Assembly (NCBI RefSeq): GCF_003790525.1 | Contig: NZ_CP033632.1 | Origin: Escherichia coli | GTDB lineage: Bacteria; Pseudomonadota; Gammaproteobacteria; Enterobacterales; Enterobacteriaceae | Direction: 5' to 3' (one strand) | DNA length: 64,000 nt | Shown: one piece after another, positions 38,501 to 41,500 of the stretch | Numbering within the stretch: position 1 is the first letter of the stretch | Layout: every line of letters begins with the position of its first letter | Program-made: the position numbers

Positions 38501-41500
38501 TGGCGTTGTGAATGCGGCTGCTGAAGCCAGGCGTATAAACCACTGGGATGAACATCCAGCACCCGACAGAGCAGGCGAACAGGCCAGCAACAGGTGTTGC
38601 CCAATATACTCAACATGAACTAGATCTGGTTGCTGCTCAGCTAAACAACAGACCGAGAAAGACACTGAAGTTCAAAACACCGAAAGAGATAATTGAAAGG
38701 GGTGTTGCATTGACAGATTGAATCTACAACGGCTTTTTTTAATATGTCCCGTTCGTCGGTAACCCGCTTCAGCTCTTTCTGGAGACGGCGGATCTCGGCC
38801 TGAGCATCTGACTGTTCTTTATTAGTGGAAGAATCCGGACCGTACTTCTTTATCCAGGAGTAAAGGCTGTGGGTGGTGATATCGAGACGTGTTGCAACGC
38901 TGGCAACAGAATAACCGCGATCAACAACCTGTTTGACTGCTTCAATTTTAAACTCTTCGGGATAACGCTTACCACTCATGGGCACCTCTCTTTAAGTCAT
39001 CTTAAATGACTCTGAGGTGTCTATTAAACCTGTGGCGATTCAGTGGGAAGCCTCGCCCGACAGGGCGGGGAGCAGTCACTATGGATTTTCTTTGGCGCGG
39101 TCTGGCCATTAGGGGTCATGTTTGCTGCAACGTTTCTTCTGATGTGGATATTCACCCTTCCAGGTGATTTCTATAGAAAAAAAGCCAGACATTGATACAA
39201 TCGCTGCGGGTGCTTGAGGCTATCTGCTTCAGGCATTACCCGAAAAGCAGATAGAAGAAAGCCCCAGATAACATTACGCGTCCTGCAAGACGCTTAACAT
39301 TAATCTGAGGCAATATCTATGCTTAGCATACGTAGATTAGCCTCTTACCGACCAAAAGGTCAAGGAGAAGCAGGCTATGAAGCAGCAAAAAGCGATATTA
39401 ATCGCTCTGATCGTCATCTGTTTAACCGTCATTGTGACGGCACTGGTAACGAGGAAAGACCTCTGCGAGGTACAAATCCGAACCGGCCAGACGGAGGTCA
39501 CTGTCTTCACAGCCTACGAATCTGAAAGGTAAGAGACCTGGCGGGGAGAGATCCCATAAGCGCTAACTTAAGGGTTGAACCATCTGAAGAATGCGACACC
39601 TCGGTGCCTCGTTAAGACGATGCCTCGCGTTCTTCAATTGCGTTTTGTAGGCTGTCAGGGATACTGTCCCACGAATGGCCACCTGTAAGCTCCAGATGAC
39701 CATTTTTGTTATTCTCCACAACGAGTTAGTTCTTCTTTTCGGATCCGGCACTTCTGGGGGGGAAATCCAGCGATGGCTGGATTATGTCGTCAATTAAAAA
39801 TGCGGCGAGTAGATTAGCAAATATCCACGCTTTCGCGAGTTCAGGTTCCTTTGCACGCAAAGCATCCAGGTGCAGCAAACTTTTGAGCCGCTTAAAAGCC
39901 AGTTCAATTTGCCATCGCAGACGGTAACAATCAGCCACTTGCTCTGCTGAATATTCATCTTCCGGTAATGATGTTAGCAATAGCACATGGCCCGCTGCTT
40001 CCAGCGTTTCCGCCTGAACTACTCGTCCTTTTCGACGATTCTCGCTGAGCAGTCGGGTTTTACTGATTAATGCTTTTTCGGGAGGAAGTGATACGGCAAT
40101 GAGACGTGCCGGAAAGGGAGCTCCGGCTTTTTTATTACCTGAATTGCCTATCATTACAGTGGTTTCACCGTTCTTACCGCAATCCAGCCCGCGCAGAAAA
40201 CCCATCATGTCAAAGCGCATTCCTTCTGCAGTTAACCAGCGCAATCCTCGCCAGTGAACCCGGACGATATAATCAGCTTCTCCAAAAGCAAGTGAGCGGA
40301 TACATTCGGGACGCGAACCGAATCCCCGGTCAGCAATGCGTATCTCGTCTGCCGTTTGCGCAAATCGGTCCAGCCGTTCAGCGTCTCTGCTGTCGGTTAG
40401 CTCAAAATCAGTGAACTGACAGGTATGAGGATCATATCCCATATGTAGTCGCCATTCAGCGCTGCCGCCCCCGGGCGCACTGATTGCTGTTCCATCGACA
40501 AGACGCAATCTCTTTCCGCTTGTACAACCCGTAACTGCGGCGCGTACAGCAAGTGTTTGTGCGGCAAGTATGCCAAACCAGTCGGCGGCATTCCGCAACC
40601 GCTTCAGGAGAGCCACGTCAGATAATGTTGCAACGTCATGGAGCTGAGCCCATGCAGTGACTTCACGTAATGACATCCCCCCGGGGCCGTAAGCCAGCCC
40701 CAGACGTAGCAGAGTTGCAGCATCACGAATTTCGCGGCGGCGGGTTAGAGCCCCGGCATTACATGCCGAAGTATCCAGTTCTTCGGGCTTACCAATATGG
40801 GCCAGAATTGCTGACCAGTTATCGTGAGAGTAATTCATCGGCACGTTAAATCATATCAGGCGTAATACCACAACCCTTAAGTTAGCGCTTATGGGAGAGA
40901 TCCCCGCCACTCTTCGTGTGTCAGGTATCCTCAATGCACCCTTTCCTCTCCAAATAAAAAAGCTCCCGAAGGAGCTTTAAAATACAAGGGATGACTCTTA
41001 ATCCCACTCAATCCAGTTGTAGACGATACGAAGTGACGGGCGCACAGCGGCAGTCACATCTTCGGTACTAAAGTCGATTGCATCACTGTAGATTTTGCAG
41101 TCCAACATTTCAATTGTTGTAGCAGCTTTTGTCACAGCGTTAACCCCGGAAGATTTGGATTCAGGGGTAGCAGCCATCGTGATATCAACATAGTCCTTCG
41201 CCGCAATGCGATCCTTAATGAACTGAAGAATATCGCCTTCGATAGTCTCCACGCACTGGACCTGGATTTCCCCAGAGTTTCGAATTGGTCCGTGCTGGTT
41301 GAACTTCACACCATTCGGACCATAGTCCTCCACATTCTCTCGAGTCATTTCAGGGATTTGCGACGTGCGAACCAGTACGCTGATATCTTCATGGCCTGCA
41401 AAAGTGAGCTGGAATTCAGAAGATACCAGTCGTTCGCCTTTGGCCGCGTTGGCAGTATAGCGGCCCTTAATAAATTTACGGTTTCCCTTAGTGTTATTGT

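Follow-up and report, generated by a model that had tools for sequence, protein, structure and literature searches.

IS186 inserted 22 nt past the stop codon of a hok/mok/sok-like toxin locus on a P1-type plasmid of Escherichia coli

Can a hok toxin gene that runs into an insertion sequence 22 nt past its stop codon still belong to a killing module? The question is raised by the window analyzed here, a 64,000-nt stretch of E. coli contig NZ_CP033632.1 (assembly GCF_003790525.1). Gene content and alignments identify its replicon as a P1-type (Punavirus, IncY) phage-plasmid derivative in which a hok/mok/sok module adjoins the baseplate gene bplB. The locus restored in silico shows 98.6 to 99.2% identity to records of P1-type phages, which have it beside BplB as well; in plasmid p1303_95 it has icd/ant upstream and parA/parB downstream. 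IS remnants and cargo genes take the place of the phage genes to the left of hok in the window. Three tRNA genes lie in the right-hand part of the window.

Two overlapping reading frames noted in the preliminary description, a 51-aa Hok-like ORF and a mok-like frame, were readily placed. The hok ORF (MKQQKAILIALIVICLTVIVTALVTRKDLCEVQIRTGQTEVTVFTAYESER) spans 39377 to 39532 on the plus strand behind a Shine-Dalgarno (SD) sequence, AAGGAG, at 39363 to 39368, and residues 7 to 47 of its product match Pfam PF01848 (HOK_GEF), scoring 73.8 bits where the cut-off is 22. The protein is a single residue apart from those that RefSeq annotates as HokD, with Q33 (A at 39474) for R33, and R33 is present in all of the plasmids sampled in which the IS186 site is empty. 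The mok-like ORF (68 aa; 39319 to 39525, plus strand; SD GAGG at 39307 to 39310) is read in a frame other than that of hok and finishes 7 nt ahead of the hok stop. We take this frame, with its GEAGYE segment, to correspond to mok of plasmid R1.

The control elements upstream of and within these frames also have counterparts in known loci. A consensus scan places the hok/mok mRNA promoter at 39174 to 39201 on the plus strand (−35 TAGAAA, 16-nt spacer, extended −10 TG-n-TACAAT), a site that can be aligned with the K-12 hokC promoter GATATAAT and has been kept despite an IS3-family element that ends at ~39080. The putative 5' end of the mRNA is the tac element GGGUGCUUGAGG (39208 to 39219, plus strand), which is the first position of an Rfam RF01794 ("sok") match and has the same sequence in K-12 hokC and in the hok locus between cysH and cas3. 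That match covers the full model on the plus strand (114.3 bits, gathering score 59; E = 3.7e-26) and delimits the mRNA leader at 39208 to 39382, which contains the Sok target as well as tac, the ucb/mok-SD hairpin, and the mok start. Among P1-type plasmids, this leader shows 100% conservation. Further Rfam matches (ceN48, sR2, and a minus-strand sok) all fell under their gathering thresholds and were treated as chance.

On the opposite strand, a Sok-like antisense RNA of ~76 nt would extend over 39252 to 39327, in the position of the annotated K-12 sokC, with ends that are approximate. Its predicted fold has a single-stranded 5' tail, a long terminator hairpin, and a U-rich tail (−30.1 kcal/mol, z = −5.29). 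The candidate Sok promoter (39334 to 39363, minus strand; −35 TTGACC at 39363 to 39358, 18-nt spacer, −10 TAATCT at 39339 to 39334) was assigned by homology, since it aligns with the region 5' of K-12 sokC; it fell below the threshold of the consensus promoter scan and was not called there. Both the promoter region and the RNA are the same as in empty-site plasmids. The Rfam score, the sokC position, and the fold together point to an antisense Sok directed at the mok translation-initiation region. The preliminary description had reasoned that a locus lacking sok-like promoter elements in alignment would be a nonfunctional relic; the alignment places both a Sok promoter region and a Sok RNA here. 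Identification of the locus as a type I hok/mok/sok toxin-antitoxin module is thus supported by the HOK_GEF match, the Rfam match, the element-by-element alignment with K-12 hokC/mokC/sokC, and the Sok-like fold, and no element 5' of the hok stop is damaged: the hok promoter and tac are whole, as are the mok start with its SD hairpin, both parts of sok (promoter and RNA), and the Hok ORF.

What follows the stop codon is a different matter. IS186 (IS4 family, 1,339 bp) occupies 39555 to 40893 on the minus strand, bounded by perfect 23-bp terminal inverted repeats (39555 to 39577 and 40871 to 40893). Its transposase ORF (39726 to 40838, minus strand), which is intact and convergent with hok, encodes 370 aa, of which 369 match InsL1 (the one substitution is R26C), and matches Pfam DDE_Tnp_1 with 93.7 bits. 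The element is the same as K-12 IS186A at 1,336 of 1,339 positions, and records matching it carry the annotation IS421/IS186. It is complete and probably active.

The spacer between the hok stop and the first IS186 base (GAGACCTGGCGGGGAGAGATCC) is exactly 22 nt, the distance originally claimed, and the 10-bp duplication within a GC-rich palindrome also proved correct: GGAGAGATCC stands on both sides of the element (39545 to 39554 and 40894 to 40903), and deletion in silico of the IS and one repeat copy yields GGCGGGGA-GAGA-TCCCCGCC, a perfect palindrome with an 8-bp stem. This restored target, GGCGGGGAGAGATCCCCGCC, is a hairpin that starts 8 nt past the stop, and its GGGG-AGAGAT-CCCC fits the published GGGG(N6)CCCC form of the IS186 target motif, GGGG(N6/N7)CCCC, perfectly (PMC5009759). 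Because the IS ends in CC...GG, the duplication can be read equally well as a 6-bp core, AGAGAT, between GGGG and CCCC, as IS186 targets are described in the same study. In the window, the 5' arm, the loop, and the first 3 nt of the 3' arm (GGCGGGGA GAGA TCC, including the left repeat copy) lie at 39540 to 39554 on the plus strand, and the right repeat copy followed by the rest of the 3' arm (CCGCC, 40904 to 40908) lies at 40894 to 40908 on the same strand. Three other sites in the window match the GGGG(N6/N7)CCCC motif, and all are unoccupied.

Relatives without the insertion are abundant. The restored sequence is 99.2 to 99.8% identical across the junction to many plasmids, and one of them, pHNGDSC2227-2, has the window's upstream IS3-family junction together with an empty IS186 site, as a precursor might; its empty-site allele occupies 15526 to 16437 of NZ_CP135597.1. 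Because empty-site plasmids match the restored sequence across the junction, the repeat-flanked insertion at this site is not a product of chance. Among complete E. coli records, a 44-nt empty-site query found 42 exact matches and 28 more with one mismatch. One pair of the hairpin stem occurs as three alleles: G-C in the window, G.U in 58 complete E. coli records of empty sites (CCTC allele), and A-U in one (GAGG/CCTC allele, p1303_95). These compensatory alleles argue that the hairpin is under constraint at the RNA level. As for alleles that might escape the element, no occupied case of the CCTC intermediate was seen among the records examined, and the GAGG...CCTC form, an "IS186-immune" candidate in which the stem is kept and the motif broken, is confined to the single p1303_95 record, which speaks against an escape allele at the population level.

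Folding of the mRNA with and without IS186, which the preliminary description had proposed, indicates what the insertion could change. In the IS-free mRNA, tac (39208 to 39219) pairs in the minimum free energy (MFE) structure with the fold-back inhibition element fbi CCUCAAUGCACCC (40929 to 40941, plus strand; its counterpart in alignment is the hokC fbi region). The probability of this pairing is 0.99, and the duplex has an energy of −21.0 kcal/mol. In the window, fbi lies beyond the IS and 1,349 bp of inserted DNA are added between the two elements, so that the predicted closure of the mRNA is confined to the restored sequence. Interrupted transcripts of 347 to 1,193 nt instead fold with their 5' end mostly in a local hairpin, although MFE and partition-function folds of RNAs this long are only indicative. 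A surrogate fbi inside IS186 was considered and rejected: the duplex of tac with its best nearby partner (39682 to 39693) reaches −12.1 kcal/mol, whereas that with the true fbi reaches −21.0, and of the 14 transcript 3' ends tested, only 39700 gives this partner a pairing probability above 0.04 (0.49). The early suggestion that the 3' fold-back is decoupled from its normal context therefore holds in the models.

A second structure is lost as well. The post-stop GC stem-loop forms in the restored fold and is intact in empty-site relatives; in the window its two parts are separated, at 39554 and 40904. Its R1 homologue, the terminal stem of the truncated hok mRNA, must be whole for R1 Hok to be toxic: of 22 loss-of-function substitutions in the 3' UTR, 19 disrupt a C-G pair of this stem, after which the truncated mRNA vanishes (PMC9841398). 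Originally, the hok mRNA probably ended at the hairpin AAAGCTCC-CGAA-GGAGCTTT (40959 to 40978), which forms in the restored fold and was called by a minus-strand terminator scan as the terminator of the convergent bplB-like gene. For the interrupted transcript, the fold offers a weak hairpin and U-run within IS186 (39674 to 39715, plus strand) as a candidate 3' end, a position that agrees with the reported end of K-12 gef (hokC) mRNA in IS186, ~200 bp past the stop (PMC3562002). A stronger terminator-like site is present in IS186 at 40108 to 40137.

We therefore arrive at a reading that we regard as probable: the module would be transcribed and under Sok control with its toxin ORF intact, and would have lost post-segregational killing. 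Of this, the transcript ends, what becomes of the mRNA, and the absence of killing are the inferred parts. IS186 inserted into the GC-rich hairpin after the hok stop and displaced fbi and the original 3' end by 1,349 bp, so that tac could no longer be locked into a closed, inert, long-lived fold; the same insertion split the stem-loop with which the processed, translatable mRNA normally protects its 3' end. Transcripts from the hok promoter would run into IS186 and end inside it, and their 5' ends would fold locally, with immediate exposure to Sok and RNase III. No stable pool of activatable mRNA would then build up, and post-segregational killing would be lost. A similar disruption of fbi and of mRNA processing has been suggested for the IS186 at K-12 gef/hokC (PMC3562002).

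Such an outcome has to be weighed against a toxin-antitoxin system that still works, either because IS-terminated transcripts are stable enough and Sok unstable enough, or because the locus serves in phage defense. A working system would fit with the two intact promoters and the equally intact Sok RNA, mok, and Hok ORF, with the wide occurrence of the IS-bearing allele, and with K-12 gef, which despite its IS186 is still transcribed into a ~644-nt mRNA under antisense regulation (PMC3562002). Yet without fbi, the long-lived store of inert mRNA is expected to be gone, the terminal stem that the truncated R1 mRNA needs is split (PMC9841398), and IS186 provides no replacement for fbi of comparable energy. 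On balance, a working system seems unlikely to us. The IS-bearing state is nevertheless common, and the Hok ORF of the lineage examined shows no decay, with R33Q as its only change, from which it follows that the module may keep some function or that the insertion is recent or neutral.

How common the occupied state is was estimated by bracketing counts from ranked samples: approximately 146 to 150 complete E. coli records carry IS186 in the window's orientation, at least 12 carry it in the opposite orientation, and ~129 are empty. A single ancestral insertion does not account for these records. The IS copy in pTLYA-3 is without two substitutions found in the window's copy, and plasmids with the opposite orientation exist, which together call for at least two independent insertion events. 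Because the plasmid site has been occupied in both orientations, the hairpin is a recurrent IS186 hotspot, and IS186 is found 21 to 22 nt past the stop at five different hok loci.

This recurrence fits pure target preference, with IS186 as an irrelevant passenger beside a P1-type hok that was already inactive, present solely because the hairpin matches its motif. Occupation of the homologous hairpin at five hok loci, and of the plasmid site in both orientations, is what such a preference would produce, and uninterrupted chromosomal hokA, hokB, and hokC gave no post-segregational killing (preprint 10.1101/2025.08.07.668861), so that an intact architecture is no guarantee of activity. We nonetheless find the passenger explanation very unlikely, because the compensatory hairpin alleles and the invariant leader suggest selection on the RNA in empty-site plasmids, and because the hok loci that are generally active are the plasmid-borne ones. 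More speculatively still than the inactivation proposed above, the post-stop hairpin may be a built-in landing pad for IS186 and the insertion a recurrent off-switch for Hok, perhaps selected and possibly reversible by precise excision, an idea to which we give very little weight. It draws on five paralogous loci (chromosome, prophage, and phage-plasmid) struck at the same nucleotide, and on the two orientations seen at the plasmid site. If true, hosts or plasmids could disarm the toxin without mutating hok, and it would be explained why occupied sites are roughly as common as empty ones.

The insertion itself is real but ordinary, and it opens no new biological question; IS186 at this site of a P1-like plasmid, with the same repeat, was already published in 2019 for pSvP1. 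Its practical meaning lies mainly in annotation: hok followed by IS186/IS421 in P1-type resistance plasmids calls for a test before it is scored as a functional addiction module. The databases also supply naturally matched alleles, with the site empty, with IS186 in one or the other orientation, and with three variants of the hairpin, that should be useful for work on the function of the hok mRNA 3' end and on IS186 targeting.

In the pSvP1 account (Venturini et al. 2019, PMC6906374), IS186B lies beside bplB, at the same backbone position as here, and its repeat GGATCTCTCC is the reverse complement of GGAGAGATCC. The neighboring gene was termed an "antibacterial toxin" and was not identified as hok, and the IS was tied to the loss of rlfA, rlfB, and pmgF (PMC6906374); the empty-site plasmids, in contrast, already carry the hok segment without the IS.

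The parallel with K-12 that had been drawn at the outset is exact. The hokC (gef)/mokC/sokC locus of K-12 and B strains has IS186A 22 nt past the stop, in the homologous hairpin and in the same orientation, with fbi beyond the IS and an identical tac. Both repeats are 10 bp long (GGAGTGATCC in K-12), and the IS186/hok junctions share ~90% nucleotide identity over a 160-nt query. The K-12 locus differs in being chromosomal (dnaJ-nhaA interval), in encoding a HokC of 50 aa, one fewer than here, with mokC annotated in frame with hokC, and in having a Sok hairpin that is 18 nt shorter. At three further paralogues on other replicons, hokE, hokD, and the cysH-cas3 hok (strain 1916D6), IS186 likewise stands 21 to 22 nt past the stop in a homologous G-run/C-run hairpin; K-12 hokE has IS186B at 21 nt in the opposite orientation, and hokD of the Qin prophage in strain LR-03 has an imperfect target, GGGGG-AGAAAT-CCCTC, with an 11-bp repeat.

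The hok/sok (parB) system of R1, compared here through the Rfam model and the R1 sequence, is distant in sequence, carries no IS, and has had its post-segregational killing shown experimentally. It nonetheless shares with the window a Hok/Gef toxin, an overlapping out-of-frame mok, a GC stem-loop just past the stop, a cis-antisense Sok whose single-stranded 5' tail precedes a terminator hairpin, and, in the restored sequence only, the long-range pairing of tac with fbi.

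The 51-aa Hok-like frame and overlapping mok-like frame of the preliminary description are both present, and they lie in a hok/mok/sok type I toxin-antitoxin module whose elements are intact up to the hok stop. The hok ORF (39377-39532, plus strand; MKQQKAILIALIVICLTVIVTALVTRKDLCEVQIRTGQTEVTVFTAYESER) encodes a protein scoring 73.8 bits with Pfam HOK_GEF (cut-off, 22), and the 68-aa mok-like ORF occupies 39319-39525 in another frame. Rfam sok (RF01794) matches at full length over 175 nt (39208-39382; 114.3 bits, gathering score 59) on the plus strand, which has the same sense as the hok leader. 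We aligned the restored locus, from which IS186 and one repeat copy had been removed in silico, with the similarly restored K-12 hokC/mokC/sokC locus. All functional elements were found in place: the extended -10 hok promoter (TG-n-TACAAT, 39193-39201), the invariant 5' sequence tac (GGGTGCTTGAGGCT, 39208-39219), the hairpin sequestering the mok SD (GCCCC...GAGGC), the mok ATG, the hok SD (AAGGAG), the post-stop hairpin and, downstream, the fold-back inhibition element fbi (...CCTCAATGCACCC, 40929-40941). The hok Tyr47 codon, TAC, is followed by a G (UACG, 39514-39517).

The same alignment bears on whether the locus is a relic lacking the antisense promoter, as the preliminary description had allowed. 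Promoter elements for Sok are present on the minus strand in the region matching annotated sokC (-35 TTGACC, 18-nt spacer, -10 TAATCT); a consensus promoter scan did not call this promoter, so it is assigned by homology. The predicted Sok RNA, of ~76 nt, extends on the minus strand from 39327 to about 39252; its fold (-30.1 kcal/mol, z = -5.29) consists of an unpaired 5' tail and a long terminator hairpin.

IS186 (39555-40893; 1,339 bp, with perfect 23-bp inverted ends, CATAAGCGCTAACTTAAGGGTTG) begins exactly 22 nt past the hok stop, as first noticed. It is identical to K-12 IS186A at 1,336 of 1,339 positions. Its intact transposase gene, which is convergent with hok on the minus strand, encodes a 370-aa DDE protein that departs from InsL1 only by R26C. 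The reported 10-bp duplication, GGAGAGATCC, is found on both sides (39545-39554 and 40894-40903), and the palindromic nature of the target was borne out: deleting the element and one repeat copy yields GGCGGGGA-GAGA-TCCCCGCC, a hairpin with an 8-bp stem. The target, GGGG-AGAGAT-CCCC, fits the IS186 motif 5'-GGGG(N6/N7)CCCC-3' derived from 59 mapped insertions (PMC5009759). That study counts the 6-bp core as the duplication; given the CC...GG termini of the element, a 10-bp and a 6-bp duplication are two readings of one sequence. This IS186 copy is the only one in the window; three other motif sites, at 4449, 21428, and 57807, are unoccupied potential targets.

The folding results agree with the earlier suggestion that IS186 decouples the 3' fold-back of the toxin mRNA. 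In the restored mRNA, modeled as 39208-39554 joined to 40904-40982 (426 nt), nucleotides 1 to 12 are predicted to pair with 40929-40941, with a tac-fbi pairing probability of 0.99 and a duplex energy of -21.0 kcal/mol; through this long-range pairing the full-length hok mRNA is kept closed and cannot be translated (PMC9841398). In the window, the element separates fbi from the mRNA body and adds 1,349 bp to their distance in the restored locus. When transcripts were modeled as ending at positions from 39554 to 40400, the 5' end mostly folded into a local hairpin. A substitute fbi partner within IS186 (39682-39693) was considered and rejected, its duplex reaching -12.1 kcal/mol and its pairing probability being at most 0.04 at 13 of 14 3' ends (0.49 at 39700). 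Within the element, folding places a weak hairpin with a U-run at 39674-39715, and a terminator-like site that is stronger was found by a scan (plus strand, 40108-40137).

The hairpin that IS186 splits corresponds by homology to the terminal stem in the truncated, active form of R1 hok mRNA. When R1 hok was screened by saturation, 22 substitutions in the 3' UTR caused loss of function; 19 of these broke a C-G pair of this stem, with loss of the truncated mRNA (PMC9841398). The interrupted module is most likely transcribed and under Sok control but, we infer, no longer able to build the stable, slowly activated mRNA pool on which post-segregational killing depends.

Empty sites among related plasmids show that the insertion event is genuine, the restored 512-nt locus having 99.2 to 99.8% identity across the junction to many E. 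coli and Salmonella plasmids; among complete E. coli records, about 129 with an empty site were recovered by 44-nt queries. The whole leader in empty-site plasmids matches that of the window at every base. The precursor-like pHNGDSC2227-2 shares the window's upstream IS3-family element but has an empty IS186 site; within the compared region, the IS, the duplication, and one hok base account for all differences between the two.

The window itself is a mosaic plasmid of E. coli that over 24 kb has 99.9% identity to pYLMB15b and its relatives, and its hok locus is part of a P1-type (Punavirus, IncY) phage-plasmid backbone. The locus adjoins bplB in P1-type phage records; in p1303_95 it has the icd/ant immunity genes on one side and the baseplate and par genes on the other. 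Left of hok, the window no longer has the phage genes, and in their place are a frameshifted element of the IS3 family, an IS256 fragment, and cargo genes. The IS3-family element (38032-39080; OrfA, 38641-38985, and an OrfB fragment, 38032-38616, both minus strand) truncates the gene for a small membrane protein found ahead of hok in P1-type plasmids, leaving a remnant ORF at 39043-39195, and ends near 39080, about 128 nt before the hok transcription start, with the hok promoter untouched. With this element close upstream and the IS256 fragment farther left, IS elements enclose the hok module. Elsewhere in the window, an Rfam AAC_AAD_leader/attI match (2307-2378, minus strand, 70.6 bits) indicates that the left end carries a class 1 integron cassette region, and the right-hand part carries plus-strand tRNA genes for Asn-GTT (55712-55787), Thr-TGT (55790-55865), and Met-CAT (57670-57745). 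A RelE/Phd-YefM type II toxin-antitoxin pair is expected at about 16789-17324 from the pYLMB15b annotation, by which the plasmid would hold at least one other addiction-type module; nearby, both on the minus strand, are ORFs for a large autotransporter (18635-22150) and for a helicase-related protein of 1,350 aa (12238-16290).

Three alleles of the post-stop hairpin occur among P1-type plasmids: G-C (GGGG...CCCC, as in the window), G.U (GGGG...CCTC, 58 records), and A-U (GAGG...CCTC, p1303_95 only). The stem is preserved across the series, and only the first allele offers a perfect IS186 motif. The window also carries an A at 39474, giving Hok Q33 (CAA) in its IS-bearing lineage. The other P1-type plasmid hok copies read (6 of 6) encode R33 (CGA), including pHNGDSC2227-2 and the IS186-bearing pTLYA-3 and p276M-CTX-M-55; so far, R33Q is confined to the lineage of the window, which carries IS186. 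As HokC has His at this position, the change may well be neutral.

The plasmid site has been hit repeatedly. The window's orientation occurs in about 146 to 150 complete E. coli records (estimated from ranked samples), and at least 12 records carry IS186 reversed at the identical position. In the one reversed record in which the repeat was checked, p276M-CTX-M-55 (NZ_CP044294.1), it is the same GGAGAGATCC; this plasmid also lacks the hok promoter and the leader's first 43 nt, with DNA annotated as an IS3-family transposase fragment in their place, so that the locus is disrupted twice. The IS186 copy of pTLYA-3 lacks two substitutions present in the window's copy, which together with the two orientations shows at least two independent hits.

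IS186 occupies the homologous post-stop hairpin, 21 to 22 nt past the stop, at five different hok loci: the window's plasmid locus, K-12 hokC, K-12 hokE (in the opposite orientation), hokD of the Qin prophage in strain LR-03 (relBE-hokD), and a hok between cysH and cas3 in strain 1916D6. The LR-03 target is imperfect (GGGGG-AGAAAT-CCCTC; 11-bp repeat), and by our count from the annotated hokD stop the distance to the element is 23 nt; K-12 hokD has no IS at that site. Insertion of IS186 in the cysH-cas3 region, where this hok sok system is also found, has been described (PMC3903273).

The likeness to K-12 that was initially pointed out is seen in the K-12 annotation at both hokC and hokE, and at gef/hokC the position of IS186, to the nucleotide, and its orientation are those of the window. 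There, the element is thought to disturb fbi and mRNA processing; the gef mRNA, of ~644 nt, ends inside the IS about 200 bp past the stop, and antisense-RNA regulation still operates (PMC3562002). The K-12 association has entered the textbooks (Pedersen and Gerdes 1999, cited by PMC3562002). A paper on the P1-like plasmid pSvP1 (PMC6906374) reports an IS186B insertion next to bplB with the repeat GGATCTCTCC, the reverse complement of the window's repeat, and does not name hok. What our analysis adds is solely the connection of these two literatures, the placing of fbi beyond the IS, and the hotspot behavior at the plasmid site.
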